Below, piece after piece: positions 9,488-51,015 of a stretch of DNA of 64,000 bases. The notes under the pieces were generated by a model. The model saw only the letters and a program-made list of their open reading frames with translations, did no database searches and had not been told where the DNA came from. Position 1 is the first letter of the stretch, and each line of letters starts with the position of its first letter. The position numbers were made by a program, and so were the translations under genes. The stretch comes from Spirochaetia bacterium (GTDB lineage Bacteria > Spirochaetota > Spirochaetia > WRBN01), in assembly GCA_965249825.1 (NCBI GenBank), contig CBDFMW010000002.1, forward strand, positions 98,644 to 162,643, read 5' to 3'.

Positions 9488-9508
9488 CCTGCACCGTCCT
9501 CTTAGTTA

Positions 9509-10750: not shown

Positions 10751-10845
10751 GGGGATGGGGTCGTCTCGCTTTTACTTTAATTTTAGTGAAAAGCACAGGG
10801 GGTGTCAACTCAGTTAAACATTACCTCGAGCTTCATAGTAGAAGT

Positions 10846-12207
10846 TTATTCAGGGGCTTTGCCCCATCGATCCATCAGTAGGTAAGCAGTATCTACTAGG
10901 TTTACCCAATGAGATAATTGGAGGTTTTCAAGTTGTTCCTTGGTTCCCCCTTTTTGAAAGAACACTGCTAAAAGAGTAGGGTGATCTTTTTTTGCTTGCC
11001 ATCTTGTTGCTGATGTTTGCTCATTATCATTAGTCTTTTGCATCAGATGTAATAGTTCCGCTTGACTAAAAAAAGACATAAAAGGTGCAATTAATGTTGA
11101 GAATTTTATGGTGGCTTCATCCCAGTTTCTACTATGACTATAAAGGCGAGTGAGTACTTCATGTAAAATAATAGTTAGATTAACCTCTTGAGCTTGCACA
11201 TAGAGAATCTCTATCACTTCAGGACGGATGTTTGTAAAATCATATTCTGTCGGTATTTGTTCAAAATGCTCTTTTAAGTTGGATGCTAAAAATGTAGCCA
11301 CAAATGCTCGATCCAAACGAGGTATTCCTCGATATTGTGTCTCGTTGACAAATAGTTTAATCATATTTTTAATATTCTCAGGAAAAGCATGATACAGATG
11401 ACTTAAATGACAACCCAATAAGGTTATAGCGTACTCTTTGCCATAGACATCAGCTTCTTCGATAAATCTTGTGTAATAGCCAAGCTCGCTTTCCATGAAC
11501 TCTACGCACCAACTCCGCCGTTCGGGTTTGCTAAGCAGATGGAATAGTGAGGCATAATAAATGGCTCGATGAGGGTGAATGTCCTCATCGGTAGGGTGAA
11601 TGACAAATTTCCATAAAGCCCTAAAAATAGTTTTGCAAGATGTTTTGTCTAGCCGATGAAAATATCTGTTGTCTAAATAGGTAGCAAGCGTTTTTCTGTC
11701 TGCCAACTGTCTGCTTTTTGCAGCCAAGTCTTTAACCATTTTGTCCACTATTTTTTTGGGAAGCATAGCGGGTTTGAGCAAAAGTTCTTCGAGGGCGTTA
11801 CGCAGAGCCGCTCTAGCTTCTTCTTTAGTAGGCTGAAACAAAACCAGCTCGTCAGATAAACTAGGATGGGCACACCTATTACGATCACTGCGAATGCGTT
11901 CTAATCGTTCTTTAGCCTGTCCTTGCAGAATCCAGCCTTTTTCAAGTAAGGTCTTCTCCCATTCCATCGATTCCTTGTGGCTTTTAACCGCCTCCAGGTC
12001 GGCTAAGATTTTTTTGGCTGTGTCATCCCCTTCAAAATCACTTAAATGTTGCAATTTAAACACAATATCGCATAAAATCACCGTCCACAGTGAAACAATC
12101 ATGGCACGGTAGTTTCCTGAAGTGTAAGAGCTATACACTTCTTTAAAATATTCACGAGTTTGAGCTTGTGAGATTTTTTCCATAACTTCTTCTAGGTCAA
12201 ACATCAT
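10846..12207 (-). CDS. HEPN-domain (Rx4H) Abi-like protein
   Basis: 453 aa; N-terminal helical domain with RIRSDRNRCAHPS (R-x4-H HEPN motif, aa 109-114). Confidence 0.55.
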   Translation of the reverse strand: MMFDLEEVMEKISQAQTREYFKEVYSSYTSGNYRAMIVSLWTVILCDIVFKLQHLSDFEGDDTAKKILADLEAVKSHKESMEWEKTLLEKGWILQGQAKERLERIRSDRNRCAHPSLSDELVLFQPTKEEARAALRNALEELLLKPAMLPKKIVDKMVKDLAAKSRQLADRKTLATYLDNRYFHRLDKTSCKTIFRALWKFVIHPTDEDIHPHRAIYYASLFHLLSKPERRSWCVEFMESELGYYTRFIEEADVYGKEYAITLLGCHLSHLYHAFPENIKNMIKLFVNETQYRGIPRLDRAFVATFLASNLKEHFEQIPTEYDFTNIRPEVIEILYVQAQEVNLTIILHEVLTRLYSHSRNWDEATIKFSTLIAPFMSFFSQAELLHLMQKTNDNEQTSATRWQAKKDHPTLLAVFFQKGGTKEQLENLQLSHWVNLVDTAYLLMDRWGKAPE

Positions 12208-12209
12208 TA

Positions 12210-13418
12210 TTACTCTTTAGCCGACCACAGGGCATTCATCACCAAAAAAATGCTCTCTTGCACGGTGATATGGTCATTCATCTGCAATAAATAGATCTCT
12301 GTGGTTTCAGGTGAACTGTGGTGTGTGGTGAAACAGTGTGATACCATGCACGGATTAATTAAAATTTCAAGACCATCTAGTAAATGTAAGGAGATAAACA
12401 CTTTATCTTTATGACTAAAAAAGGCCTTAATATGGGACCAACTCTCTTTTATAGGAGTGGGGTGTTTTCCGTCTACAAAAAAGAGACTTAAGTAGGGATT
12501 AGGCGATCCATAAGTATTATAGCCCTGTTGCACCACACTCACTAGATCAAGGTTTACCAAAATATCTGTGTGTAAAATGTGGTGTAGCCTAAGAAAATTG
12601 TGTTCTAAAGATAAAAGGGAGGTGAAATAACTTATATTGTTCACTACCGCTTGCGTGTGCTGCACGCCAATAAAATGAAGTAAAGCCCCACCCGTTCCCA
12701 ATAACGGGGCGAGTGGTTCAATAAAGGTGATGAGTTGAGGATTAACCCACAATAATACATCATCTTGATAAGATTTTGGCTGAACAAGAGATGTGCCACG
12801 TAACTTTAACCAAGTGTTTTCAATAAGGCTAGGGGACGCGGACACCAGCGGTGCTTTTAGTGAGACATCGGTAAAGTGTAAAAGGTTTTTTGGGATAGAG
12901 TCATTGCCGACTGCACTTACGGTATGATTTATTGAGAGTTGAGTGGCTAAAGAAAACCCCAGTAAACAGAGCTCTTGTGAGTGCAATAGAGCTATAGAAC
13001 AAGGTATTCTCTGTTGTTGTAGATAAAGATTAAGCGAGTTCAAATCTTGTTTAATGTAAAGAAAATGATTTTGATAGGCCATTACTAACTGCGTATGCTC
13101 ATGTATCACGTCTGTTCTAGAATTTCTTTGGTAGCTTGTAATGCCCAAACTCATTAAACTAAAATTAACTAGAGCAAGGTTATTGTCTATGGTTGTCAAC
13201 TGAATAAAGGCAGGCACTTGCTCTTTAAAAAGAGTACAGAGAGATGAAAATGACTCTTTAACCAAGATTTGGGCATCACGATTGGTAAAGGTGATAAGAC
13301 TAAGCTCCTCTATTTCTCCTGAAAGGTGATTTTGCTGGTAATGTGGTATTACCACCGTGCAAGAGGCAGGATTAATCATCAATATGCCTAATGTCATGCT
13401 GTTTAATGGAATAAACAT
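12210..13418 (-). CDS. hypothetical repeat-motif family protein (402 aa)
   Basis: LALVNFSLMSL, LLWVNPQLITFIEP, LEILINPCMVSHC motif copies. Confidence 0.55.
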   Translation of the reverse strand: MFIPLNSMTLGILMINPASCTVVIPHYQQNHLSGEIEELSLITFTNRDAQILVKESFSSLCTLFKEQVPAFIQLTTIDNNLALVNFSLMSLGITSYQRNSRTDVIHEHTQLVMAYQNHFLYIKQDLNSLNLYLQQQRIPCSIALLHSQELCLLGFSLATQLSINHTVSAVGNDSIPKNLLHFTDVSLKAPLVSASPSLIENTWLKLRGTSLVQPKSYQDDVLLWVNPQLITFIEPLAPLLGTGGALLHFIGVQHTQAVVNNISYFTSLLSLEHNFLRLHHILHTDILVNLDLVSVVQQGYNTYGSPNPYLSLFFVDGKHPTPIKESWSHIKAFFSHKDKVFISLHLLDGLEILINPCMVSHCFTTHHSSPETTEIYLLQMNDHITVQESIFLVMNALWSAKE

Positions 13419-13462
13419 ATTACTATTCCATATGAGGCAAGGAGGTGAACGTAGTCATGGCA

Positions 13463-14206
13463 TTACTTAGAGGTGGAATCATCAGCATTGGGGTTTACAG
13501 CCTGGCAACTGAGCATCTTAATGAGATTACTAAATATCTCTTGATGATGAGTACTTACCTGTGGCCCATCACAACGCTTTAACCAGTAATTAATAAAATT
13601 AAGGCTAGGGTGAGAAAACTCTTCACTGAGCAGCTCCTCTAACCGTTGCATATACTCGATTTCAGTGAGTTTTTGAAGCATTTTAGTAGGGTGAAAGGAG
13701 TGCTTGTGCAACTGCTCTAACAGCGTTAAATTAGCAGGTTTTAAGGAAGTCAAATCGACACTGGTAAAAGGTTTTTTATCCAAAATGCCTTCTTCGCTAA
13801 AGTCTGCAAAAAATTGATACACACAGCCGTTCGTAAGGATGGCTAACTGAGGTTTTTTAAAGGCAAACACAGCGTGCATCGTGTTGTAGCAGGTTTCAAA
13901 ATCTTCATCCACATACACACCCATTACAAAAAGGGGTTCTTCATGTTGCCAAATAATATAGTCAATGTGGTAGGTGTGCGTTTGGGCTTGCGGGCTTACC
14001 GCATTCATTACGCTTGAGGTGTCTAGCACCAATCCTCCCAGCATAATCGCCATGGGGCTGGTTTCAGGCAGGTTCAGATCCACTTCTAATGGACCACAGT
14101 GCACTTCATCAGGGTTGGTAATATCATAACCTAGGGCGGTTAAAAAGGGTTGCACCAGCACCGCATTGATGCTGGCTTTGGTGGTGAGATCGTGCTGAAA
14201 ACGCAT
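13463..14206 (-). CDS. hypothetical protein (first gene of minus-strand operon)
   Basis: 247-aa ORF; start codon lies inside a perfect 43-bp tandem duplication. Confidence 0.45.
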   Translation of the reverse strand: MRFQHDLTTKASINAVLVQPFLTALGYDITNPDEVHCGPLEVDLNLPETSPMAIMLGGLVLDTSSVMNAVSPQAQTHTYHIDYIIWQHEEPLFVMGVYVDEDFETCYNTMHAVFAFKKPQLAILTNGCVYQFFADFSEEGILDKKPFTSVDLTSLKPANLTLLEQLHKHSFHPTKMLQKLTEIEYMQRLEELLSEEFSHPSLNFINYWLKRCDGPQVSTHHQEIFSNLIKMLSCQAVNPNADDSTSK

Positions 14207-14263
14207 GTGTTTTTCGGTTATTGGTGGTGAGATCGTGCTGAAAACGCATGTGTTTTTCGGTTA
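14178..14263. repeat. perfect 43-bp tandem duplication (2 copies) spanning the start codon of ORF 13463..14206
   Basis: ttggtggtgagatcgtgctgaaaacgcatgtgtttttcggtta at 14178-14220 and again at 14221-14263. Confidence 0.95.
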
Positions 14264-14331
14264 TTTGTTGAATACTGGCGTATAAATTCATGCACCAACC
14301 CTCTTTTTTTGTGGTTTTTTCTTATTGTAAC

Positions 14332-15264
14332 CTAATCATTAAACTTTGTCAGGACTATTTCTCTAATATCGTCAGAAATACTGACAAGCCATGAGGCTAA
14401 TTGGTCGGTAGTCTGCAAATAGGTGAGAACCTCTTCTTGTCTTTCTTTAAGAACGCCAAAAATATGCGGTTTACCATCGGCTGTTTTGCCACCAGCGGTA
14501 AAAATATCTCTAAAATTCGGGCAGATGCAGTTGAACCGTTCTAGCAACAACAAAGAGGCTTTATCAAACTTATTGGCTTTGTTGGTGAAAATTTCAGGGC
14601 ATTCCGCCAATGCCATCACGATAAAGGTTTCTTGAGTGGGCTTGTCCAGTGTTCGCCATTGGCGCAAGATAGGCGTTGTGAATTGCTGGTCATCCATCCA
14701 CCACAGGGTTTCTCCGTCTTTTAATGTGTGAGAAAAGTATTCTTTCAATTGCTGTACTTTGTTTTCGTCCGTACGAAATTGATCGTAGGAGGTGTTCAGT
14801 TTATGAAAAATAGTATCGGTGGGGGATAGCGACATATCTATTTTATAGCGTGGTGAATGGGTAACCCCAATCGAGGATAAACACTCTTCATAGCGTTTGT
14901 AGCGAATATTTCTTGATCCACCGAGCTTACCAAATAGCATGTAAATATGCTGCAACTCCGCTACCCGATTGGTTTCCATAATACTGTTGCCTAGGCTTGT
15001 CCAGCCATCTTTTTGGGTAACTTTTACCTCCACGCCAAAGTTGCCGCTGGCTATAATATCAGGAAAGGATAAAGCCCCTGTTTGCTCAATATCCCAGTTA
15101 CCTTGGCTTGCCTCTTTCATTAGGTCGACCACAAACTGCTCAAAGCTTTGCCCCGTCATCTTGGCACTGAGGCTGTTAATAGTTTGTAAACCCAGTTGTT
15201 TACTTTTTTCTAATAGCTGAATGAACTCAGGTTCAGTATGCACTCCTTTTGCTATGTGAATCAT
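14332..15264 (-). CDS. Type II restriction endonuclease (PD-(D/E)XK fold), cognate to adjacent C5-MTase
   Basis: PD-ExK motif SFPDIIASGNFGVEVKVTQK; likely start Met at 15262-15264 forms ATGA overlap with MTase stop, GGAG RBS upstream. Confidence 0.6.
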   Translation of the reverse strand: MIHIAKGVHTEPEFIQLLEKSKQLGLQTINSLSAKMTGQSFEQFVVDLMKEASQGNWDIEQTGALSFPDIIASGNFGVEVKVTQKDGWTSLGNSIMETNRVAELQHIYMLFGKLGGSRNIRYKRYEECLSSIGVTHSPRYKIDMSLSPTDTIFHKLNTSYDQFRTDENKVQQLKEYFSHTLKDGETLWWMDDQQFTTPILRQWRTLDKPTQETFIVMALAECPEIFTNKANKFDKASLLLLERFNCICPNFRDIFTAGGKTADGKPHIFGVLKERQEEVLTYLQTTDQLASWLVSISDDIREIVLTKFND

Positions 15265-16211
15265 TTCAAATACTCCATCACTTGCCGTGCTATATGCCAC
15301 GCAAACACAGGCGGCACGGCATTGCCAATTTGTTTATAAGCGGCTGAGGTGGAGGGAAGAAAAATAAAATCATCAGGAAAGGACTGCAAGCGAGCGGCTT
15401 CGCGTGCCGATAAGCGTCGGCTACCATCCCACAAAAATTCAATGTTGCCGTGGTGTTCAGCCCGCATGGCTGGAGCTATTTTATTAGCAGCAATGTTGGT
15501 GTTGCCTTGTCCATTGGTGCGTTTAGCCTTGGACCACACATGATTGATAAGTTTGTTTTCAGGCAAGTTTACCAAATCATGAAGAGCTTCTTGAGCTGTT
15601 ACATGTTGGATGCAGGTGGGGGCAAGGTGTGTAAAAAAAGTATTAGGATAGGCGGTTTGTTTTAAGCCCACAATAATCACCCGGCTACGCGATTGAGGCA
15701 CGCCAAAGTCTGCCACTTGATACAAATGGTAATTCACATTGTAGCCTAGTGCCGTAAAATCATTCACAATCGCTTTAATGGCTTGCCCCTGCTCAATGTC
15801 TAAAATACCTTTCACATTTTCGGCAATGAAAATGTTCGGGTTGGTCAGGCTAATCACTTTTAGCATGGCGGTGTAGAGTAAGCCCCGTCGGTCCTCAAAG
15901 CCTTGGCGTTTGCCAGCATAGGAGAACGGTTGACACGGAAAGCCCCCTAACACCACATCAGCTTGTGGGGGAATGACCCCTGAGTTGATGCCATCCCAAA
16001 CATCACCACTAAAGGGGGCGTGGTTAAAGTTGTGTTGGTAGGTTAAGCAGGCGTTTTTTTCAATGTCGCAGGCAAAAAGCGTGTTAAAATTGTGCTTGGC
16101 ATAGTGCTTGGCATAGTGCTTGGCATAGTGCTGGTTCAAAAAAGAAAAATCGCCACGAAAGCCTAAATCTAAGCCACCAGCCCCTGAAAAAAGAGATACA
16201 ATATTAGGCAT
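15261..16211 (-). CDS. DNA (cytosine-5)-methyltransferase
   Basis: Motif I FSGAGGLDLGF, motif IV GGFPCQPFS, motif VI ENVKG, motif X QIGNAVPPV; start ATG 16209-16211 preceded by AGGAG. Confidence 0.9.
   Translation of the reverse strand: MPNIVSLFSGAGGLDLGFRGDFSFLNQHYAKHYAKHYAKHNFNTLFACDIEKNACLTYQHNFNHAPFSGDVWDGINSGVIPPQADVVLGGFPCQPFSYAGKRQGFEDRRGLLYTAMLKVISLTNPNIFIAENVKGILDIEQGQAIKAIVNDFTALGYNVNYHLYQVADFGVPQSRSRVIIVGLKQTAYPNTFFTHLAPTCIQHVTAQEALHDLVNLPENKLINHVWSKAKRTNGQGNTNIAANKIAPAMRAEHHGNIEFLWDGSRRLSAREAARLQSFPDDFIFLPSTSAAYKQIGNAVPPVFAWHIARQVMEYLK
16094..16129. repeat. in-frame 12-bp tandem repeat x3 (gcttggcatagt) encoding (HYAK)3 inside the MTase
   Basis: Three exact copies between MTase motifs I and IV. 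Confidence 0.9.
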
Positions 16212-16293
16212 AAAACTCCTGTTGGTATGTGAGTGAAATCGATATACACAAAGCATTATAGCACCTAAAGAGTAACAAGACTATTCGGTTACA

Positions 16294-26728: not shown

Positions 26729-26766
26729 AATGGGTAAGTCTCCAGCAAGGTAGAGGGTGAAAAGAA

Positions 26767-26838
26767 GCCAAAACTGGGAATTGAACCCAGGACCTACTCG
26801 TTACGAGTGAGTTGCTCTACCGCTGAGCTATTTTGGCG
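26767..26838 (-). tRNA. tRNA-Thr (anticodon CGU)
   Basis: Cloverleaf on minus strand: acceptor GCCAAAA/UUUUGGC, T-loop GGTTCAATTCC, anticodon loop CU-CGU-AA; one A.C mismatch at 31-39. Confidence 0.75.
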
Positions 26839-27815
26839 TATAACCCCTTCACCATAAAATATAACGCTCTTTTTGTCAAGGGGAAAGGTTTTGGTTGACT
26901 AACGACTAAATGTTTTTTGATTTCATCATAGACTATAGCAGGAAGAGCGGTTTTAGTGAAAGCTTTATCTAGTTTCTTAGTTTCATTCTTTTGAGCCTTT
27001 TCTAATTTTTCAAAGGAGGATTGCAAGTAAGGTGATTTTTTACTTATTTTTTGCATAGCATCAAAAATCGATTGTAAAGATCTGGTGTTCTTCGCAAATC
27101 TTTCACCGTATATGCGTTGATTGTGAGCACAGTGATTTCTTAGTGTAGAGAATGCCCACAAATCCTTTTCGAGTTTTTTTATATCTTTGTTTAGGTGTTT
27201 TGTGTTTTTGGGTTGACCTAGAAGTACAACGATGTTTTCTTTTAAGTCCTGCGGTAAAATTTGGTAGAACTTACTGAGTTTGCCAAATGTAAGTTCATTA
27301 ACCAATATCCATATCGGAACATAACCATGATTTTTTGGATCGAGATAGTGGGTTATATAGGGGATTTTTGTTCTGCTATTTTTAATTATAGTCTGAAATT
27401 CTTTAATTACCTCTTTTGTTTCTTTATCTGTAGGATTAGGATAGTTCTTCGGGTCGCAAAAAAATGTGTCTTTATAGCTGTCGTGCGCATGATTCTTAAA
27501 GTAGTGAGCCACTTGATAGCCAATGATATTTTTAAGAAATGCTTCAATATATAGCAACTGGGTTAGGTAGAGTTTACGCAAAGCACCATCAAATTGATAG
27601 AGGGTATGGATTTGAAAGAGTGATGTTCCTGTATGATATTGGTTCGTACGAGTATCCGCTAGAAATGGTTTACCAAAGGAGTTAATGAGCGTGTAGTAGT
27701 TACATTGTTTTAAAATAGCTAAATCAAAGTTATAATTTTTGGGTATCCCTGATAGATTCCGTTTGTAAAGCTGTTTTAGTTGCTCTTCATGAGTTAACGG
27801 AGGTTTTTCTGCCAT
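26817..27815 (-). CDS. Abi_2 family (AbiD/AbiF-like) abortive-infection HEPN protein
   Basis: 332 aa; hallmark STLRNHCAHNQRIY (R-x4-H) and Abi_2 N-terminal helical region; 3' end overlaps tRNA-Thr 5' end. Confidence 0.8.
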   Translation of the reverse strand: MAEKPPLTHEEQLKQLYKRNLSGIPKNYNFDLAILKQCNYYTLINSFGKPFLADTRTNQYHTGTSLFQIHTLYQFDGALRKLYLTQLLYIEAFLKNIIGYQVAHYFKNHAHDSYKDTFFCDPKNYPNPTDKETKEVIKEFQTIIKNSRTKIPYITHYLDPKNHGYVPIWILVNELTFGKLSKFYQILPQDLKENIVVLLGQPKNTKHLNKDIKKLEKDLWAFSTLRNHCAHNQRIYGERFAKNTRSLQSIFDAMQKISKKSPYLQSSFEKLEKAQKNETKKLDKAFTKTALPAIVYDEIKKHLVVSQPKPFPLTKRALYFMVKGLYAKIAQR

Positions 27816-28362
27816 TTATATCAAACCTCCTTATCGAGACAAAAAAAACATCCCGATTTTCAAGAGGTTATCTTGAAGGATAAGGATGTCCCCACCAAAT
27901 TCATGGTGTCTCTTATCTTAAGTATAGCCTAAATAGGGCAGGGTGTCAAGCATGGATTCTGTAAGAATCTAATAAACTGGTTGTGAGGGGTGGAAGACAA
28001 GCTAGACGAAATAGTGTACACTCTTTATAATTTGAACGCTGAAGAACGAGCGGTGGTGAGTGGGGGGCGGAGCTGATGGGTGGGGAGTTGACAAGCGTGC
28101 TTAATTAGCGTATCATTAGGGTGGAAGGATTTTGGTTACTGCATGTTAAGTTTTATTCTTAATGAATAAGAGGGAGATGCGTTTTGAAATCCGGATTCTT
28201 TAATATATAATATTAAAATGACGGATTTTAGAATTAAGAACGAGGCTAAGTAATATTGGTCTTTAAGCAAGGTAGTTGAGAAACACTATTGGATTTACTG
28301 GGTTCAACACGGTAACAACAAAAAATCTCTATAAGACAAAGCCCGCCTTTTGTGGGCTGTTG

Positions 28363-29181
28363 TCATGTGTGCCTTAATCCATCATTTAAATAAATGTTCA
28401 CATGACTTGCCTTGATGCGTACTTTTTCCTGTGTTCTTCCATTGAAAAAATCGCTATCAATATTTCCATCACTTTCTATTTGCACATCATAGTGATGACC
28501 TGCACCGTAACGATACCCAAAGCGATAGTGACCACTTAAATAGTAATGAGCGGAATCGGTAGACTTGTTGTTTAAGTCCCCATGCTTGTGGTTACCATAA
28601 AAAAATAGGCGTTTCTTACGATCCTGATACCCTTCCTTTTTAGCTGAGTTTGCCTTGACAAATTTAAAAGGATTGGCTATCGTAGGATTTAACTCTTCTT
28701 TGCCGAGATACACAGCCTTTAGGTGTGCTTCAAAAGCAAAGCCATTTATTTTTTCGTCAAAATTTTTGATTGGCAATAAGTAAACGTGATTATTTCTTAG
28801 TTGCTTCGCTCGTATGTTGTACTCCACAGCTTTTGATATAGCCGTAGACCATAACTCCTCATTTCTATAGTGCTCACTAGATAGTGGTTCTATAGAGCGG
28901 ATAGAGGCAAAAGGAAAAAATAACTCTAACAAAACATCGCAATTCGCATCCTTGTGTTTTACATAGATAAGCTGAATAAACTTGTATGTATGTCTTTTAA
29001 CAAGAGGCAAGAGTAAGTCTTTAAAATACTTATTAATAGGTTCTACGGTGTATTTCGGACTAATTTCATTTACTGGCATAAAAGCAAAATCATGATTTGG
29101 ATGTTTTTTTTCTACTGCCTCAGGTAATTTAACACAGAGTGTTTTATTTAGCCCTGCTACAATAACTAACGTTTTAGCCAT
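28363..29181 (-). CDS. hypothetical protein (AT-rich islet, downstream gene of 2-gene module)
   Basis: 272-aa ORF, markedly lower GC than flanks, 3 bp after upstream ORF stop; hairpin terminator at ~28337-28360. Confidence 0.5.
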   Translation of the reverse strand: MAKTLVIVAGLNKTLCVKLPEAVEKKHPNHDFAFMPVNEISPKYTVEPINKYFKDLLLPLVKRHTYKFIQLIYVKHKDANCDVLLELFFPFASIRSIEPLSSEHYRNEELWSTAISKAVEYNIRAKQLRNNHVYLLPIKNFDEKINGFAFEAHLKAVYLGKEELNPTIANPFKFVKANSAKKEGYQDRKKRLFFYGNHKHGDLNNKSTDSAHYYLSGHYRFGYRYGAGHHYDVQIESDGNIDSDFFNGRTQEKVRIKASHVNIYLNDGLRHT

Positions 29182-29184
29182 TTG

Positions 29185-29640
29185 CTATTTATGCTCTCCC
29201 AGCAAACTCTCTATCAGCCATACTGGAAGTTGTTTATCCTTATGTTCACTGGGGATACGGTCAAGCACTTTTTGTAATAAAGAAACATCGTGAGCCTTTT
29301 TCTTTGTTTTGACAGAACTTGGCACACTCATTTGATTATCAGTGCCATTTAAAAGTTCGTCTATGCGTGTTTCGTCCTCGTCTTTGGCAACGGCAATAAC
29401 TAGAGGGTTACTGTTTGCATGAACAAGTTTTTTTAAAAATGTATGTTCTTTGATTTTATCTTTAAGCTTCTCTTCGCCTAAAAAATCATCTAGGGAATGT
29501 TTTCCATATTCAGAAATCAATCTATTTCCAAGCTCTGCCGCCAATAGAACTTTAATGGGTTTTCCATCTTTGTTGTATTTATCACTATTGTAAAGCTTTT
29601 CTGTAAACCTTCTGAACTTTTCGATATTTAACTCACTCAT
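29185..29640 (-). CDS. hypothetical protein (AT-rich islet, upstream gene of 2-gene module)
   Basis: 151-aa ORF, Lys/Glu-rich. Confidence 0.5.
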   Translation of the reverse strand: MSELNIEKFRRFTEKLYNSDKYNKDGKPIKVLLAAELGNRLISEYGKHSLDDFLGEEKLKDKIKEHTFLKKLVHANSNPLVIAVAKDEDETRIDELLNGTDNQMSVPSSVKTKKKAHDVSLLQKVLDRIPSEHKDKQLPVWLIESLLGEHK

Positions 29641-29963
29641 TTATCTTTATCCTTTTTATCTAAAATAATCCGATCTTACTTTATCATCATTAGGAGGTTA
29701 TGTCAAATCTTCATGAGATATATGGTATACTATAAGATATATAATACACTTAATAACCAAGGATATAAGAACATGACACTTTTAAAATGGCTATTGAAAC
29801 CATTCCGTAAAGAAGAGATGCCGGCTGAACTCTGCGATATTTCAGCAAGCTTAACTGCTTTTGCCGAGGCTCATCCTGAGGTTTTAAAACGTTCTAAGGA
29901 GATTGGCGAACGGTGGATGAGAGAAAGTCAGAAAAGCTAGACTTACGGTAGGAGAGGGCGAAC

Positions 29964-30404
29964 ATGACATACAAAGCCATTATTTGGTTAGAGAGCAACG
30001 GGACCTACAGCGTGATGTTCCCAGATTTTCCCAACTGCTTTAGCATGGGTGATAACCTAGCCGAAGCACGGCACTATGCCCATGAAGCACTCGATTTGCA
30101 TTTAGAAGACAACCCTGTCAAGGGTTTTGCTCGTCCATCGCTCACGGTGAATAAAGACGCATTAGGGGTAGCCTCCGAGTATAGCGAAGTGTGTGATATC
30201 AAAGTGAGCAAGAACAAGGCGTTTGCTCTTAAATTGCGTTGGTTACGCCAAGATTTAGGGCTAACGCAAAAGACCCTAGCCGAGTTGTTGCATATCGGTT
30301 TATATGCCTATCAACGCCTAGAAAACCCTCGATTAAGCAACCCTACCATGAAAACAATCGAACAACTAGAAGCGGTGATTCACCAAGAGTTGGTTACTGT
30401 TTAA
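29964..30404 (+). CDS. HicB-family antitoxin-like protein with C-terminal XRE-type HTH
   Basis: N-terminal YSVMFPDFPNCFSMGDNLAEARHYAHEAL (HicB/UPF0150 fold); C-terminal LRWLRQDLGLTQKTLAELL HTH. Confidence 0.65.
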   Translation: MTYKAIIWLESNGTYSVMFPDFPNCFSMGDNLAEARHYAHEALDLHLEDNPVKGFARPSLTVNKDALGVASEYSEVCDIKVSKNKAFALKLRWLRQDLGLTQKTLAELLHIGLYAYQRLENPRLSNPTMKTIEQLEAVIHQELVTV

Positions 30405-32695: not shown

Positions 32696-32714
32696 CTACA
32701 CGCACGCATTTTAA

Positions 32715-32747
32715 GAAAAACCCTGCTAGCAAAGGCAGGGTTTTTTA
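32715..32747. terminator. bidirectional rho-independent terminator (also left copy of 30-bp direct repeat)
   Basis: agaaaaaccctgc-tagcaaag-gcagggtttttt. Confidence 0.75.
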
Positions 32748-33593
32748 ATACCGTTGCATGAACTTGTTGTTATCTACACGAGCACCGCTAAGTAAATCGT
32801 ACAATGGATTGTCTAGCACGCTACCAACTGTGGTCTGTCTTTCGTTAGCGTTTGAGACCAAGAAACCAAAAGGATCGATAATGACATAGGATGACTCTAA
32901 ATCATCCTGTTTTTCGATGACCAGTCGGCATGATGCATCCACCCCTTGGCAATAAAGAGTAAATTCATCATCACTAAGAGCTAAATCGCTAGCATCGGCG
33001 TTGCAATTTGCTTGAATGCGTACTTGCAAAATCTTGATACGATCAAACGCAACATCTCTTTACATCTGGTTAATATTTTTGTGTTTATTGCTCTGGCTTA
33101 CCACGGTGTTCACTTTAAGTTTAAACCTTTTTTCTTTAGCATACTGCAACACCTCCACAAGATTCTTGTAATCTAATGTCTGTCCGTTCCTACAACTCCT
33201 ACCGATGATAACATTGGTTTGGTTATCAAGACTATCAATACTAATTCCTATCATATCCACTTTATCTTGCCAGTTATCAATCACCTGCTTTGATAGCAAT
33301 GTGGCGTTGGTAATGACAGATACCGCTATTTTTTTGCCCACAATATAGGTAATCAGCTCGTTTAAGAAGGGTACAAGCATAGGCTCACCCCCCGCAACAT
33401 TTATACGCCCGTCCACAATACCGCACTGCCTAAAATAGTGTTCAATGGCATCCCCCACACATCTCCACTCTTCTAGCTCTAGCTCACCGTTCTCGGGCAA
33501 ACTATCTGAGGCATCAAAACGGGCAAAACAGTGTTTACAACTGTAGTTACATCTCTGCGTGATGTGTAAGTTAATGACATTAAACCCATTCAT
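32745..33593 (-). pseudogene. prokaryotic viperin-like (pVip) radical-SAM enzyme interrupted by a single in-frame TAA at 33060-33062
   Basis: CNYSCKHC radical-SAM motif; viperin-specific blocks INVAGGEPML, ISIDSLDNQTNVIIGR, FKLKVNTVV, then after the stop ...SCRLVIEKQDD..SYVIIDPFGFL aligning to the viperin C-terminal domain. ORFs 33060..33593 and 32745..33029 are in the same frame. Confidence 0.65.
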
Positions 33594-33595
33594 CT

Positions 33596-34831
33596 TTAAA
33601 ACACCCCCAAACTTTTCATTAATGAAAACAACGCCAACCCTATAGAAGCTACCGATGTCGCTGTGAGAACCACGATGACTTTTTGTAGCTTTTTCGTAGT
33701 GGTCGCAAAGGTTTGCTCCATCGCCTCCACTCGCTTCATGTCTTCAATCGCTGTGGCATTAAGGGCGGTAAACCCTTGCATTTCATCGGCTACTTTGCTC
33801 ACTTCCGCCTCCAGTTTGGCGGTAAGGGCTTGGTGTTTCTCCTGCACTTCATCTTTAAAACTGGCGACTGTTTTGTTGGTGGTCTCAAGCTTGGCGGTAA
33901 GGGCTTGGTGTTTCTCCTGCACTTCGTCTTTAAAACTGGCGACTGTTTTGTCGGTGGTCTCAAGCTTGGCGGTAAGAGCTTGATGTTGCTCTTGCACATC
34001 ATCTTTAAAACTAGCGACAGTTTTGTTGGTGGTCTCAAGCTTGGCGGTAAGGGCTTGGTTTTGCTCTTGCACTTCGTCTTTAACAGTAGCGACGGTTTTG
34101 TTGGTGGTCTCAAGCTTGGCGGTAAGGGCTTGATGTTGCTCCTGTACTTCATCTTTAAAACTAGCCACGGTTTTGGTTATATCGGACTGAAGGGCTTGAC
34201 GATGGTGTAACACCTCGTCTTGAACGTTGTCTAAAGTTCTACTAAGCTGGTCTATTGCTTCCGAATTACCGCTACTACACCGATCCAACTCGACTATTTT
34301 AGCATCAGTTTGACTATGTTTTTCAGCATTCCGAGAGCCACGCTCATTAACATCTCGGTATATGGTTTCAAGGTATTGTTGTGTCTCCTCGGTTATATTC
34401 GTATCACCTGAACGTATTAATTTAATAACAACATCTTCTTGTTTCTTGCGAGTATCTTCAGAGTTACTATGTTCATCGCCTAGGCTTATAAGCCTACCGT
34501 CCACATAATCAAAGCAATACAGAAAAAACTTGATTGATTCTTGAACCAATTCTACGATTTGCAAGTCTGCTTTAGCTGATGCAATCAAACCTTCAGCTAA
34601 CAACTCATCACGCGCCTTACTTTTACCCCATCCCACATTGTATACTTCGTGCGCTTTAATTCCTTGTTCACTGATCGTTTTTTTGGTTTGATCAATACCT
34701 TTCATTAGCCCTTTTAGGTGTTTTTCCTCATCATTAGAGTTGGTGAGTCTGCTCAAGCGGCGCTCAGCAAAACGATCTTTATTAGACAGTACTCCTAACC
34801 ATTCATTATCATTATTTTCCATTTCACTCAC
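33596..34831 (-). CDS. C-terminally membrane-anchored coiled-coil protein with five 25-aa tandem repeats
   Basis: 411 aa; repeats KTVASFKDEVQEQHQALTAKLETTN; C-terminal TM VIVVLTATSVASIGLALFSLM; strong RBS AAGGAGTGAG. Confidence 0.6.
   Translation of the reverse strand: MSEMENNDNEWLGVLSNKDRFAERRLSRLTNSNDEEKHLKGLMKGIDQTKKTISEQGIKAHEVYNVGWGKSKARDELLAEGLIASAKADLQIVELVQESIKFFLYCFDYVDGRLISLGDEHSNSEDTRKKQEDVVIKLIRSGDTNITEETQQYLETIYRDVNERGSRNAEKHSQTDAKIVELDRCSSGNSEAIDQLSRTLDNVQDEVLHHRQALQSDITKTVASFKDEVQEQHQALTAKLETTNKTVATVKDEVQEQNQALTAKLETTNKTVASFKDDVQEQHQALTAKLETTDKTVASFKDEVQEKHQALTAKLETTNKTVASFKDEVQEKHQALTAKLEAEVSKVADEMQGFTALNATAIEDMKRVEAMEQTFATTTKKLQKVIVVLTATSVASIGLALFSLMKSLGVF
33790..34200. repeat. 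75-bp coding tandem repeat array (~5.5 copies)
   Basis: ggcggtaag(g/a)gcttg recurs at 33818, 33893, 33968, 34043, 34118 (period 75). Confidence 0.9.
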
Positions 34832-34865: not shown

Positions 34866-36562
34866 TTAGTACAAACTGTTTTCTGGAGACTGCATCATCT
34901 TTTTAAATTCCGCCTCACGCTCTGCCCTGCTAACTGCTACCGAATGTTGTACGTCCTCTATATGATCATTAAACTGTTGCTTGAACTCTGCGGATCTTTG
35001 TTCTACCTCCGCAGATCGTTGCTTCGACTCCGCCATTCGTTGATCAACATAAGCATAGCCTTCAGCAATGTTATGATAGGTCTGCATCATGGCATACTGC
35101 GGTAATTTACCAGATAAAGAGACAAGTTGAAATTTAATCTCTAAGTCTTTGTTTCGGTTATGAAACTTATCCATATAGTACAAAACAATGGTGGTTACCA
35201 ACCCACCTACAAGACTAGACAGCACCACGGCAATCGCATCGCTCACAGTTCTCTCACCAAAAAGGGGGAACAACATTAAAGGCTGAAGACCGGGGATTGC
35301 CAATAATAACTTCTCAATAGCCTCTGCCAACGCCAGCGAAAGCACACCAATTAACCCTGCGATTAATACTTTTACGGCTTGGTAACGCACCTCTTCCTTA
35401 GGCATTCCAGCCGGTGGGTTAGCCAATATTTTCATGGCTTGCACCAAAGAGACAAAGCCAGCTCGAATCATCTTAACAAATCTCTTTAAGGTGGTGGCAA
35501 ACATGTTGATAACAAACACCACCATGTTAGACAAAAAGGCGGTGATAGCCTGCCCAATGCCGTCTTTAAACAGATCTTTAAACTTGTTTTTTATGTTCTC
35601 AAACGCTTGATTTAAGGATGTTTTGAATCGGGCAACCACCTCTTTCAAGTTTTCATTGCCTTTGTTCTTAAATGTGGCGCGAACCTCTCTAAACACCGCC
35701 TGCACCACCTCTATCAAGGCTGGCGCCAGCATGGCGTATGCCCCCACATACATAGCATCTTTGGCTCCGGTAGACAACAGCTCTTTACCTTGCTTGTTAA
35801 AGAGGGCTTTATCTCCCTCCTTCTTTACATGTTTTTTGGCTTTGTCGTACTCTGCGGTAACCAGTTTCATGTCTAAATCATAGAACTCGGCATTGGTTTT
35901 TCCCGTTTTGCCATGGGGCTTGTTTGCCCACACCAACAGATCCTGATTACCCTTGGACTGGTTGGCACTGGAGCTAATGTAGGTGAGATTGACGGAATCG
36001 GTGGTAACTTTTGCCCGTTGCTCCGCTGTCATCCCCAAGTTCAGCTTAGGGTTTCGCTCAATTTCGGCAGCTGAGATGACATGGTCTAGGTGAGTTGAGA
36101 CATCTTTGTTTAACACCTTGCCAGTGTAACCATCTTTAATAGTCTCATTTTGCTGAAAGTCTTCTTTGCGTTGTTTATTAAAAGATTTACCATCCACTTT
36201 ATCGTAATCACTGCCTTATCGTAATCGCTGTTTTTTCTGTCATAATGATTCGTTTCCATGTATTTCATGTGGTCTTCATTACTCGCGGTTACGCCCTGTT
36301 CAAAGTTATGCACGGTGGTAACGTTACCACCATCAATGTTGGTCAACATCAGCGATGCTAGCCCAAACTGTCCCTTAATGGTGTCTAACACCACCTCTTG
36401 GCACAGCACCAGCAAAGATTTCGTCTCATTCGTCGACAATTGCGACTGCAACCTATCCATTTCAGCCAGCGTTGCTTCCAGCTCGGCATCAACCTCAATT
36501 GTAAACCCCTCTGTGGAGTCACTTAATCCTTCCAGCAGCCCTTCATCCGTTTCAAACCCCAT
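34866..36562 (-). pseudogene. HNH-nuclease-domain protein with C-terminal 4-TM region, split by frameshift from a 17-bp tandem duplication
   Basis: ORFs 36110..36562 and 34866..36197 both encode SDYDK in different frames across the duplicated ttatcgtaatc(a/g)ctg (36199-36213 and 36216-36230); HNH-like block LDHVISAAE...NLTYISSSANQSKGN. Confidence 0.5.
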
Positions 36563-37098: not shown

Positions 37099-38644
<1,546 letters not shown>

Positions 38645-45726: not shown

Positions 45727-48700
45727 ATGATGAGAAACCTATTAACCCAAGGGATGGCAATTGGTATTGTCAATAGAGGGGAGGCCGCCTTTCGTTTCGT
45801 GCGTGCCCTGAAAGAATATAATTTGTTACACGAGACACAGTTTAAGAGTGTGGCATTCTACATAGATTCTGAGCGTGAAGCTGTTTTTGTGCAAGAGGCT
45901 GATGAAGCCTATGCGTTGAGTAGCTTTTCCGCTTTTTCTACGGTTAAGGGGTCTCCTTATTTATCTTATTCATTGTTGTTACAGGCCTTGCAACAAACAG
46001 GCTGTGGAGGATGCTGGGCTGGGTGGGGTTTTGTAAGTGAAGATGCTGACTTTGTGCAGGTGCTTGAGGAAAACAATATTGTGTTTTTAGGTCCTACTGC
46101 TCATACCATCAACTTAGTTGGTGATAAAATCAGTAGTAAGCAGCTGGCACATGATAGTAAAACCCCTATCTGCCCATGGTCCCAAGGGCCTGTGGGTTCG
46201 CTTGAGCTGGCGTATCAAGTGGCTGATCGCATTGGGTATCCCGTGATTGTCAAAGCCAGCAATGCTGGTGGTGGGCGTGGTATACGTTTTGTGTTTGATC
46301 AACCCATGATGGCTGAGGCTTACGCCTCCGCAGTGGAGGAAACCAAGAGGGTAACCGGCAATGATCTTGTGTTTATTGAGCGCTTAGTGGCTCAGGGTCA
46401 TCACTTTGAGGTGCAGGCTTTAGCAGATTATCACGGGGTGATTAAAACCTTTGGTGTGCGCGACTGTAGTGTGCAACGTAAAAATCAAAAAATCATCGAA
46501 GAAACTCCTCCATCACAGCTAGAGGCGGAGCAATTGGTTGAAATGCAGGCTGCCGCCACACGCTTGTTACATGAGGCAAACTATCAAGGGGCGGGGACTG
46601 TAGAGTTTATTTATGATATGGATCATAAAGAGTTTTACTTTATGGAAGTGAATGCACGTTTACAGGTAGAACACCCGATTACTGAAGAGCTTTTTGGTAT
46701 TGACTTAGTGGGTGGACAGATTGATGTAGCCCGCGGTTTGAGCATTGCTCACTACAATGAGCAGCCCTTGGGGCATGTTATGGAACTCCGCCTGAATGCT
46801 GAAGACCCGATGCGCGACTTTAAACCAGCTGGTGGCAAGGTAACACGCTTTCGCCCAGCAGGGGGTATTGGTGTGCGTATTGATTCAGGTATTCAAGCGG
46901 GCTCTACCATTCCGCCTGACTTTGATAGCATGGTAGCTAAGATTATTGTGCGAGCGGCGAGTCGTCCGCAGGCTTTGCAACGATTAAAACGAGCCATTCA
47001 AGAAACGGTTATTGAAATTGAAGGTGGTACCACTAACCGTCTGTTTGCTTTACATCTCCTTGAGTTGCCTGAAATGATTAAGGGTGGCGTGTCGACTCGT
47101 TTTGTGGAAGAGTATTTAAGCACCATGGAGGCAACAGCGTGCTATGCTGAGCCTGCCTTGGCAGCAGCGGCCGCTGAAATTTATTTAGAAAAAATGGCAC
47201 AAGAACGTGCGGTGTTTACGCAAGAGGTGCTGGTATTGGGTGTGCCACGTTCGTTGCAAAAAAATGATGTGCAAGAGTTGAGTTTTGTGCATCAACAGGC
47301 ACTTTATCAGGTGCAGTTGCGCTACTTGGGCAATAATGAGTTCTGTCTTACACACCAAGGGTTGAGCCATTTTTTTAGTTATACACACAGTCAAGGCCAA
47401 CAGGCGGTGCTAGAGTTAAACAGCACGCTCTATGAGATAGCTTGTAGTCAAGTGGGTGGTATGCTACGTATAGAGGTGAACCAGAGTGAAGTACACTTCA
47501 TTGATAGCGACTTTGGTGGTGGACTGAAAGCTAGTGCACCGGGATTGGTGTTAAAAGTGAATGTGGCTGAAGGGCAAACTGTTAAAAAAGGTGAATTGCT
47601 TTTAGTTATGGAAGCTATGAAGATGGAAAGTCCGGTGTATGCACAAGTTGAGGGCGTTATTAACGAAATTGTGGTGCGTGCCGGACAACAGGTGATGAGT
47701 GGGCAAACGCTCATCAAGATTGAGAGCAAAGAGCAGGCGGCCTCTACCCCAATGGCTAAGCCAACCCTCTTTCTTATCCCTTCCTCTATGTGCATCCCAT
47801 TAATATTGGAGTATCAAGCACTGTTCTTAGGATACGATGCCCACCCTAGTTTGGTAGAATTGGTGAAGATGAAGGCGGAAGATTTAGAGACTGTGTTGAG
47901 CTACTTTGCACCCATACACCAATTGTTTTCTACTGAGCCTTTGGTAAGTGTTGTTGGCAGTGCCTCGTTGAGCTGGGCGGATCATCTCACCAGCTATGCG
48001 CACAGTTTTGATCGAGCTAAAGTGGCACTACCGACTCTATTTGAACAGAAGCTTAATGAAGTGGTTGTATTATACGGGGTTGAGTTAAGTGATGAGTCTG
48101 CTCAAAATGAATTTCTTTATCGGCTCTATCGCGCATTTCTAGCTACCAAGCAGCAAACACAAGTGGTGTATGCCTTAATGGTAGGGGTGAAAAATGTTGA
48201 TCGCCAAGACAATCAGCGGTTGCGACGTTTGGTGGGACAACTGGCGGTGCTAGTGCCTGAGCTAACCACTTTGGCGCGTGATTTTAACTACACGTTTTTT
48301 ATTAAGAAACAACTTGCGAGTGCTTATAATAATAAGCTGATGAATTTCAAGCGTTTACTACAGATTACCGAGACTTATCCACAGCACCGGCCGCAGTTAC
48401 TTGAACGTGCCTTGGGCTATGGGGTAAGTAGTGAATATGACTTGGCTAGCCGATTGTTTCACAAAGAATCATGCGACTTGGCACAAGATGTGCTGGTTTC
48501 GCGACTTTATCGTCATTGCCAGCTTGAGCTCGGGGCAAAAACAGACACCACGCTTGAATTCACTTACACCAGTCATGAGGGTCGTCGTTTGACGGGTTGT
48601 TTGAGTCATATTGCAACGCAGTTGAATTCAGTGCAAAAGTATGATGCTTTACTTTTGGTGAGCGAGCGAGAGATAGGGGTGGAACAGCTGGCATTGACCT

Positions 48701-51015
48701 TCGAAAGTTATGGTCGACTGGTTTTAATCACGCTCGATAAGACTCAACACGTGCTTAAGTATAGCAATTTTTTACCCACAGCTTCAGGTTGGATGCTGGA
48801 TGGTAATCGGTTGTATTTTAGCCCACTCGTCTATCGTGAGTTACGGCTTTATCGCTTGGATGCCTTTACTAAGCAAGTGAGCAGCCTTACCCCTACAATG
48901 GGTTTAATCTTAGCAACCTCCAAAGATAGCGAGAAAGATGAGCGGTTTGTGCTTTATATGAGTGTAGAGTCAATGCGTCTAAGCCCCCCACAAGGTGGGC
49001 AAGAGATGGTGCAACTCTTTGGGTTAGAAGAATATCTAACTGAGGGTATTCAAGCCCTGCGTATGGCGCAAGATAAGCGTAAAAAGCGGCTGTATTGGAA
49101 CCGTGTGGTTATTTTTGTTTATCCGCTTATTGAGGCTCCGCTTGAGATGTTAGAGGCTTATGCGCTAAAGCTTTGCCATAACATTTTAGACCCCAGTTTA
49201 GGGGTAGAGCGTGTGATTCTCCATGCTCGATTGAAAGGGTTAGGTGAGCGTGAATTGGTATTATCGCCTACCGCTATTGCAGGGCAGTTTACTTTTGAAA
49301 TTCGTGAGCCAAAAGTAAGTAGATTACGTCTACAAGATTCCTATGAAGTGAAGGTGATGAAGGCACACACTCGTGGGATGTTCTATCCCTACGAGCTGTT
49401 ACAAATGCTCAGTTTGGGTCAATTTGGCTTTGAGAGCAGCACTTTTACTGAGTATGATTTGAGTTATGATTGTGCCATTGGTTGCTGTGCAGTAGAACGC
49501 CCTTATGGGCAGAACAAGGCCCATATTGTGTTTGGTGTGATTGAAACCCTTCATTTAGGGCAAAACTTGAAACGAGTTATTATTCTTTCTGATGCAACGG
49601 CTGATATGGGATCTCTCGCTGAACCTGAATGTCGGCGTATCAATGCAGCCTTAGATTTGGCAAATGAGCTGGGTGTGCCTGTGGAGTGGTTGCCGTTAAG
49701 TTCTGGGGCTAAAATTACGATGGATAGTGGTACAGAGAATTTGGACTGGACCGCCCAGACTTTACGCCGCATTATTAACTTTACCCAAGATGGTGGGGAA
49801 ATTAATGTGATTGTGAGTGGAATTAACGTAGGTGCCCAGTCGTATTGGAACTCTGAGGCCACCATGTTGATGCACTGCCGTGGATTATTGATTATGACTG
49901 GACAGGGAGCTATGTTGCTCACCGGTAAAAAGGCTCTCGACTTTGCCGGATCAGTCTCGGCGAGCGATAACTTAGGCATTGGGGGTGCACAGGCTATTAT
50001 GTTACCTAATGGCGAGGCACAGATGTATGCTGCTACCGTAAAAGAGGCGTATCAGCTATTAATGCACCACTACCATACTTTTTATGCGCAGAAGGGGCAG
50101 CGCGTGTCTTCCATAATGACGCAAGACAGTTACGAACGTAATGTGGCCTTGTCACCCTATAAAGATCATTTGCAACAAGGTTTTAATTATTTAGGTGATA
50201 TTTTTAGTGCCGAATTTAATGGTGAACGGAAAAAACCCTTTGCTATGGCACAGCTGATGCAAGCCTTGTGTGACTCAGATTGCACGCCGCTTGAGCGAAT
50301 GGCGAACATGCGCGATGCCGAAACAGCATTGGTTTATCAAGCCCGCGTTGGTGGACATGCCTGTGGTTTGATTGGTATTGAGAGCCAAAGTTTGGTTAGA
50401 CATGGCTTGGTGTCCCATGATGGTCCTACTAGTTATGCAGGAGGAACATTGTACCCATTGTCCAGTAAGAAGATTGCACGTGCCATCAATATTTTTTCCG
50501 ACCGTGTGCCGTTAGTGGTTTTGGCTAATTTATCCGGTTTTGATGGGTCACCTGAATCATTGCGCAACCGCCAGTTAGAGTGGGGTGCTGAGATTGGTCG
50601 ATCGATGGTGAACTTTAAGGGACCTATCTTGTTTGTTGTTGTGGGTCGTTACCATGGTGGGGCTTATGTAGTTTTCTCTAAAATGCTGAACGAAAATATT
50701 CGTAGTTATGCCTTAGAGGGGTCGTTTGCTTCGGTTATTGGAGGGGCGCCTGCGGCTGCGGTTGTTTTCTCGGCTGAAGTGAACAAGCGCGTGTATGGTG
50801 ATGAGCGCTATAAAAAAGCTCAGCAGGATGGCAACACGCAGCCTGCTACACTGAGAGCGTTGTTCTCCGAGTTGCAACAAGAAAAGCGGCGAGAATTAGC
50901 CTTTGATTTTGACCAAGTGCACAGTGTGGAACGAGCACAACGGGTAGGATCAATTGATGAAATCATTTCACTTAGCGAATTACGTCAAAAGGTGGTAGAT
51001 TTTATCAAACCATAA
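45727..51015 (+). CDS. single-chain multidomain biotin-dependent acyl-CoA carboxylase (BC - BCCP - central - carboxyltransferase), eukaryote-type ACC architecture
   Basis: 1762 aa; ATP-grasp biotin carboxylase (EVNARLQVEHPITE), biotinyl-Lys motif EAMKMESPV, CT beta-like (IILSDATADMGSL...) and alpha-like (VVGRYHGGAYVV) domains. Confidence 0.8.
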   Translation: MMRNLLTQGMAIGIVNRGEAAFRFVRALKEYNLLHETQFKSVAFYIDSEREAVFVQEADEAYALSSFSAFSTVKGSPYLSYSLLLQALQQTGCGGCWAGWGFVSEDADFVQVLEENNIVFLGPTAHTINLVGDKISSKQLAHDSKTPICPWSQGPVGSLELAYQVADRIGYPVIVKASNAGGGRGIRFVFDQPMMAEAYASAVEETKRVTGNDLVFIERLVAQGHHFEVQALADYHGVIKTFGVRDCSVQRKNQKIIEETPPSQLEAEQLVEMQAAATRLLHEANYQGAGTVEFIYDMDHKEFYFMEVNARLQVEHPITEELFGIDLVGGQIDVARGLSIAHYNEQPLGHVMELRLNAEDPMRDFKPAGGKVTRFRPAGGIGVRIDSGIQAGSTIPPDFDSMVAKIIVRAASRPQALQRLKRAIQETVIEIEGGTTNRLFALHLLELPEMIKGGVSTRFVEEYLSTMEATACYAEPALAAAAAEIYLEKMAQERAVFTQEVLVLGVPRSLQKNDVQELSFVHQQALYQVQLRYLGNNEFCLTHQGLSHFFSYTHSQGQQAVLELNSTLYEIACSQVGGMLRIEVNQSEVHFIDSDFGGGLKASAPGLVLKVNVAEGQTVKKGELLLVMEAMKMESPVYAQVEGVINEIVVRAGQQVMSGQTLIKIESKEQAASTPMAKPTLFLIPSSMCIPLILEYQALFLGYDAHPSLVELVKMKAEDLETVLSYFAPIHQLFSTEPLVSVVGSASLSWADHLTSYAHSFDRAKVALPTLFEQKLNEVVVLYGVELSDESAQNEFLYRLYRAFLATKQQTQVVYALMVGVKNVDRQDNQRLRRLVGQLAVLVPELTTLARDFNYTFFIKKQLASAYNNKLMNFKRLLQITETYPQHRPQLLERALGYGVSSEYDLASRLFHKESCDLAQDVLVSRLYRHCQLELGAKTDTTLEFTYTSHEGRRLTGCLSHIATQLNSVQKYDALLLVSEREIGVEQLALTFESYGRLVLITLDKTQHVLKYSNFLPTASGWMLDGNRLYFSPLVYRELRLYRLDAFTKQVSSLTPTMGLILATSKDSEKDERFVLYMSVESMRLSPPQGGQEMVQLFGLEEYLTEGIQALRMAQDKRKKRLYWNRVVIFVYPLIEAPLEMLEAYALKLCHNILDPSLGVERVILHARLKGLGERELVLSPTAIAGQFTFEIREPKVSRLRLQDSYEVKVMKAHTRGMFYPYELLQMLSLGQFGFESSTFTEYDLSYDCAIGCCAVERPYGQNKAHIVFGVIETLHLGQNLKRVIILSDATADMGSLAEPECRRINAALDLANELGVPVEWLPLSSGAKITMDSGTENLDWTAQTLRRIINFTQDGGEINVIVSGINVGAQSYWNSEATMLMHCRGLLIMTGQGAMLLTGKKALDFAGSVSASDNLGIGGAQAIMLPNGEAQMYAATVKEAYQLLMHHYHTFYAQKGQRVSSIMTQDSYERNVALSPYKDHLQQGFNYLGDIFSAEFNGERKKPFAMAQLMQALCDSDCTPLERMANMRDAETALVYQARVGGHACGLIGIESQSLVRHGLVSHDGPTSYAGGTLYPLSSKKIARAINIFSDRVPLVVLANLSGFDGSPESLRNRQLEWGAEIGRSMVNFKGPILFVVVGRYHGGAYVVFSKMLNENIRSYALEGSFASVIGGAPAAAVVFSAEVNKRVYGDERYKKAQQDGNTQPATLRALFSELQQEKRRELAFDFDQVHSVERAQRVGSIDEIISLSELRQKVVDFIKP

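Follow-up and report, generated by a model that had tools for sequence, protein, structure and literature searches.

A divergent prokaryotic viperin gene disrupted by a probable Tyr178-to-TAA change in a spirochaete related to Entomospira

Does the viperin-like locus of this spirochaete encode a working antiviral enzyme, or is it a gene disabled by a single in-frame stop codon? The question is raised by two neighboring open reading frames (ORFs) in the window, by which we mean the whole 64-kb stretch of DNA that was analyzed. An earlier note on this DNA described both ORFs as lying in the same frame with nothing but a TAA between them, and the protein read through this codon as about 282 aa long and colinear with viperin. 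Sequence and translation bear out both statements. The listed ORFs (33593..33060, 177 aa plus TAA, and 33029..32745) share one frame (33593-33029 = 564, divisible by 3), and the ten codons at 33059..33030 are all sense codons (RDVAFDRIKI), being absent from the ORF list because the ORF lister starts at the first TTG (33029). From the ATG at 33593 to the natural stop, a TAA at 32747..32745, the frame is thus interrupted once, by the TAA at 33062..33060. The read-through product of this prokaryotic viperin (pVip) gene is 282 residues long if the stop is counted as a residue, and contains all four motifs quoted in the note (CNYSCKHC, NVIIGR, KLKVNTVV, and SYVIIDPFGFL). The N-terminal 177 codons are the sole portion that would get translated, and a protein of identical sequence (P0001) is annotated as a called protein in NCBI/ENA. 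The GC content of the gene (0.41; GC3 0.44) is inside the range of the host genes. The positions of the features are collected in Table 1.

Table 1. The pVip frame, the other genes of its putative operon and the adjoining hairpin, in positions of the window.
Feature	Position	Strand	Remarks
Whole pVip frame	32745..33593	-	177 codons, in-frame TAA, 104 codons, natural TAA
N-terminal 177 codons of pVip	33063..33593	-	Radical-SAM core with CxxxCxxC (C15, C19, C22) and GGEP (68-71)
Premature TAA, codon 178	33060..33062	-	Alignment A1
Untranslated C-terminal 104 codons and natural stop of pVip	32745..33059	-	Frame still open
Gene for 411-aa coiled-coil protein	33596..34831	-	C-terminal membrane anchor; 75-bp x 4.9 tandem repeat (33809..34175)
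PDC-M40B-like gene	34866..36562	-	Split by a frameshift into ORFs of 150 aa (36562..36110) and 443 aa (36197..34866)
Imperfect 17-nt tandem duplication	36197..36230	-	CAGCGATTACGATAAGG followed by CAGTGATTACGATAAAG; cause of the frameshift in the PDC-M40B-like gene
Hairpin CCCTGC-(8 nt)-GCAGGG	32713..32740	.	T-runs on both strands; read from the sequence

Prokaryotic viperins are reportedly radical-SAM enzymes that convert an NTP into a 3'-deoxy-3',4'-didehydro chain terminator, which blocks phage transcription. The two halves of the interrupted frame follow one another in a single radical-SAM gene of the viperin family and are not the unrelated proteins that the earlier note had allowed for. 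Aligned to the pVip and viperin profiles, the joined protein gives a single match that runs across the stop. Against the NCBIfam equivalog model NF038283 (viperin_w_prok) it scores 232.4 bits in one stretch (profile positions 3-280 of 281; E 5.8e-69), far more than chance would give, and the read-through translation alone exceeds the curated cut-off of 180 bits. The pVip models of PADLOC match it at 3.6e-66 and 4.5e-57, and the solved viperins (9DFW, 6B4C, 7N7I, 6Q2P, 5VSL) align over residues 7-281 with an E of ~1e-22. We assign the halves to one gene because of these continuous model matches, the structures, and the absence of gaps from the family alignment (A1).

The chance that they are instead two unrelated small genes sharing a frame by accident, or part of another radical-SAM enzyme such as MoaA, is practically negligible. 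The generic Pfam domain Radical_SAM covers only residues 11-165 (E 2e-14) and there are weak matches to MoaA models, but the alignment to viperin models and structures is continuous over residues 6-282. The MoaA model (TIGR02666) reaches 74.2 bits against a cut-off of 284 and matches residues 7-181 only; the scores of the maturase models are likewise far under their cut-offs. MoaA (GTP 3',8-cyclase) and the SPASM-type maturases share the N-terminal radical-SAM half with this protein (residues 7-190), whereas their second cluster domain is missing and the C-terminal third matches viperins only. With the animal and fungal viperins (RSAD2; 5VSL, 6Q2P, 6B4C, 7N7H, 7N7I, 9DFW) the gene has both the radical-SAM core and the C-terminal extension in common, but it lacks their N-terminal amphipathic helix, and the vertebrate-type model TIGR04278 scores 92.3 bits against a cut-off of 450.

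The closest likeness is to the pVip family itself (NF038283; PADLOC PDLC02903, ‘viperins not associated with kinases’), with which the gene shares the CxxxCxxC, GGEP, N8/H10, and KxNTV motifs, a length of ~280 aa, a C-terminal extension ending in RY and a neighborhood of defense genes. It differs from the family in the TAA at codon 178. In alignment A1, which comprises 30 sequences (the pVip described here and 29 homologues), all 29 family-invariant columns are kept. Those before the stop include C15, C19, and C22 of CNYSCKHC, the GGEP motif at 68-71, N8/H10, and K160-N162-T163; the six after the stop (K187, E227, Y236, G243, R281, and Y282) are all kept as well. The viperin-type C-terminal extension is colinear with the solved structures and lies entirely 3' of the stop. 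An uninterrupted ORF for the complete enzyme is lacking, with the TAA standing at codon 178. As sequenced, the locus is therefore a pseudogene of the pVip family and no functional member of it.

Alignment A1 also shows what the stop replaces. It contains neither a gap nor an insertion at this position, and the nearest homologue (P0002) reads LYRDIEFDRIKILQV where the present sequence reads QM*RDVAFDRIKILQV. The earlier note proposed to look for a sense codon in orthologues; in homologues of ~50% identity the column holds Tyr in 23 of 29 sequences, Leu in three and Ile in three, and the 21 closest homologues all have Tyr, a comparison that rests on distant homologues since the nearest pVip is only ~51% identical. 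Given this distribution, the stop is explained by one third-position change at window base 33060, from TAT/TAC to TAA. Four other origins were considered and rejected. An intron, intein or insertion would have left additional residues in A1, of which there are none. Transcriptional slippage has no long homopolymer to act on and no change of frame is needed. Selenocysteine and pyrrolysine use TGA and TAG, and the codon here, TAA, is the wrong one for both. For the same reason an artefact from a donor with genetic code 4 does not apply, the stop being TAA and not TGA.

The sequence after the stop carries no trace of decay. The identity of the C-terminal part to the 15 closest homologues, divided by that of the N-terminal part, is 0.82, and the same ratio among intact homologues is 0.815 +/- 0.07 (per-sequence means 0.76-0.86). 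The part behind the stop is thus no more diverged than expected, so the lesion is either very recent or not real. An error of sequencing, polishing or consensus, with TAT or TAC as the true codon 178 and an intact, functional pVip, is a possible but clearly less probable explanation than a genuine mutation. The TAA is one base away from a conserved Tyr codon, every downstream invariant residue is kept, and the divergence ratio is normal; the lack of downstream decay is what an error of assembly or consensus would equally produce. Finished 1.6-Mb contigs, however, rarely contain substitution errors that create a stop, and the same operon holds a second lesion of a different type, whereas the remaining ORFs of the window look intact. 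We infer that the base call of the TAA is true.

This second lesion lies in the upstream part of the gene cluster. The pVip gene would be the last of a three-gene minus-strand operon, preceded by the PDC-M40B-like gene and by the gene for a coiled-coil, membrane-anchored partner. The stop of the latter (411 aa) lies 2 nt before the pVip ATG, and the three genes are presumably co-transcribed. The two ORFs of the split PDC-M40B-like gene both match the PADLOC model PDLC04630 (PDC-M40B), at profile positions 1-85 and 95-445, and full-length PDC-M40B homologues are 545-610 aa long. Deletion of 17 nt restores an ORF of 559 aa, in which the junction YDRKNSDYDKVDGKSFNKQRKEDFQ aligns without a gap to YDRKSSNYDKVGDKSFPKKRKEDFQ of the closest homologue (P0193). 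At the downstream end of the cluster, the hairpin at 32713..32740, which separates the end of the pVip gene from a convergent SPFH/flotillin gene, resembles a bidirectional intrinsic terminator, judging from its stem and T-runs; the consensus scan for terminators did not list it.

A 17-nt insertion does not look like a typical base-calling error. All differences between the two 17-nt copies fall on synonymous third positions of the encoded S-D-Y-D-K. A simple duplication would hardly be expected to show this pattern, which could come from a mixed-strain assembly. If so, the argument from a second lesion is weakened, and the duplication, as a possible assembly artefact next door, would speak for an error at the pVip stop too. 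Among the ~50 ORFs of the 64-kb window only two disrupted genes were found, both within this 3.8-kb operon. The remaining ~48 ORFs appear undamaged, and those housekeeping genes that were checked (FtsH, GatA, Rho, GyrB, RNase Y, ArgS, RuvB, among others) match their models end to end. With both disrupted genes confined to one operon, relaxed selection fits better than random error. Since the first gene is broken as well (by the 17-nt insertion), the whole operon appears to be under relaxed selection or inactivated.

We consider it probable that the locus is a real and recent pVip pseudogene in a decaying defense operon. A nonsense mutation is also the best supported of the three origins offered by the earlier note, given the Tyr column and the second broken gene in the operon. 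In the proposed course, the Tyr178 codon (TAT or TAC) would have become TAA through a single third-position substitution, translation would end after 177 residues, and the Fe-S/SAM core would be retained. The truncated product would lack the C-terminal extension and the final third of the barrel; the six invariant residues behind the stop lie in these parts. As the final barrel strands and the extension are lost, the 177-residue product should not make the antiviral nucleotide and should be inactive. The premature stop is most likely an ordinary event in a freshly inactivated defense gene.

It is very unlikely that the stop is real and the gene nevertheless works, whether by readthrough of UAA at a low level, by a suppressor tRNA from another part of the genome or from a phage, or by reassembly of two halves made separately. 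The perfect preservation of the downstream 104 codons speaks for it. Against it, TAA is the main terminator of the window, ending 33 of the 50 long ORFs, and the stop is not of the Sec or Pyl type (TGA/TAG). No suppressor tRNA was found in the 64-kb window with ARAGORN and Rfam, which gave only tRNA-Thr(CGU), tRNA-Glu(CUC), and tRNA-Arg(CCU). No stable RNA structure follows the stop either: a segment of 116 nt spanning it (~95 nt downstream) folds no better than its shuffles (z +0.36). Inspection of the sequence revealed no ATG or GTG from which the C-terminal part could start and no Shine-Dalgarno-like sequence ahead of the first TTG (33029), and the intact homologues are single polypeptides. 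Readthrough, the remaining origin named in the earlier note, has as a programmed event no support from the window. It is extremely unlikely, too, that the premature UAA is a feature, such that full-length pVip is made only with a UAA-suppressing tRNA (for example that of an infecting phage) or by rare readthrough. If true, the cell would be spared the activity of a potentially toxic chain-terminator synthase until it is infected; the preserved 104 codons are compatible with it, and it has no other support.

Does the pVip gene, now regarded as a probable pseudogene, belong to a larger system? In three unrelated genomes, a gene resembling that for the 411-aa protein (L084:7681-8322, L086:7733-8899, and L087:7720-8646) comes immediately after the M40B homologue. 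The partner proteins share one plan, namely a conserved N-terminus (LIQESIKF...), then a coiled coil that is rich in repeats and varies in length, and lastly a hydrophobic anchor at the C-terminus, and the number of repeats in the partner gene varies among L084, L086, and L087. The M40B homologue and its partner thus look like a conserved two-gene cassette. None of the Pfam and PADLOC models, PDC-M40A included, matched the 411-aa partner. In comparison with PDC-M40, a candidate defense system of PADLOC, the upstream gene matches PDC-M40B (its two pieces give 1.5e-55 and 8e-13) and the partner stands directly next to it as in the three genomes, but the B gene is frameshifted here and pVip follows in this genome only.

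The pVip gene is appended to the PDC-M40B-like cassette at this locus, an arrangement found at none of 80 other pVip loci taken from species-representative genomes. Nine flanking proteins (the coiled-coil partner, both M40B fragments, flotillin, ThyX, HicB, two unknowns, and Abi_2) were compared with these 80 loci by tblastn and gave no match. With no relatives of its neighbors at the other loci, a conserved system of pVip plus partner is unsupported and pVip is an add-on here. Its placement most probably reflects clustering in a defense island and not a dedicated three-gene system.

The host is a spirochaete related to Entomospira. Its GyrB shares 76-77% identity with those of Entomospira entomophila, E. 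culicis, and E. nematocerorum; two short Logan contigs come closer, at 95%. Entomospira are spirochaetes of the mosquito gut with chromosomes of 1.5-1.7 Mb and a GC content of 38-46% (PMC11636382). Of the window proteins that were searched for and located, each stands alone at 90% identity, except RNase Y, which clusters with one JGI protein. The window is chromosomal, as it encodes FtsH, GatA, RuvB, Rho, GyrB, SmpB, TatD, 16S rRNA, a Ca-ATPase, YmdB, RNase Y, and ArgS. The pVip operon lies in a variable, defense-rich region between tRNA-Thr (26766..26837) and the 16S gene, which also holds Abi_2, two unknown genes of low GC content (0.35), a HicB-HTH antitoxin, ThyX, and the SPFH/flotillin gene. 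Synteny with E. culicis (L081) is lost directly past the alpha/beta-hydrolase gene next to the tRNA, and this early break leaves the right border of the island undefined by the comparison. The contig of the relative with 95% GyrB identity (L083) is too short to reach the pVip locus.

Several further observations were made in the surroundings of the operon. In the stretch 26766..29640, the 3' end of the Abi_2 ORF call (26817..27815) overlaps tRNA-Thr(CGU), and Abi_2 and the next two unknown genes have a GC content of ~0.35 against 0.45 for the window; they look like a more recent insertion beside the tRNA. The HicB-like antitoxin is fused to an HTH domain (29964..30404, plus strand) and follows a 75-aa ORF (29713..29940), which is no obvious HicA and may be an unusual toxin partner. 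The 16S rRNA gene (37100..38639, plus strand; Rfam 1545 bits) is complete and abuts the defense region. It is followed at 38800 by the Ca-ATPase gene and not by a 23S gene, so the rRNA genes are unlinked here. A second defense-like cluster on the minus strand (7635..16256) contains a homologue of PD-T7-3 at 10846..12207 (E 5.5e-96). In this cluster the genes for a type II restriction enzyme (14332..15300) and a C5 cytosine methylase (15261..16256) overlap, and five further ORFs (205-413 aa) have no Pfam or PADLOC match. An ORF of 1762 aa (45727..51015, plus strand) joins biotin carboxylase, biotin-carrier, and carboxyltransferase domains in a fused, eukaryote-style arrangement in this small spirochaete genome.

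Among 5.8 billion proteins, the best relative of the pVip is 51% identical. The best among the matches listed from species-representative genomes, with 48% identity, comes from an Acholeplasmataceae MAG, and no close relatives were found in JGI metagenome contigs. None of the 80 pVip loci in representative genomes has an in-frame stop (tblastn), which indicates that pVip pseudogenes are uncommon. Disrupted pVips do occur in public data, however: among 63 homologues from the databases, P0043, P0053, and P0042 are truncated or rearranged. In P0053 an in-frame stop is accompanied by ~26 extra codons (L089:3010-3930), and this form was seen in both ENA and JGI samples. P0043 has an inverted C-terminal half (L088:1817-2800) on a contig of 2.8 kb and may be a chimera.

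The gene is a divergent member of the already known pVip family, disrupted by the change of Tyr178 to TAA. It is carried in the public record as a 177-aa radical-SAM protein, for which pVip pseudogene (or a re-check of the reads) would be the apt label. With TAA repaired to TAT, the sequence is that of a divergent pVip whose identity to any known protein does not exceed 51%. The locus adds an insect-associated, Entomospira-like spirochaete of small genome size to the organisms that carry viperin-family genes. It would also offer a clean example of a defense operon just after inactivation, with two lesions and no further decay, and such a two-lesion operon fits the rapid turnover of defense islands.
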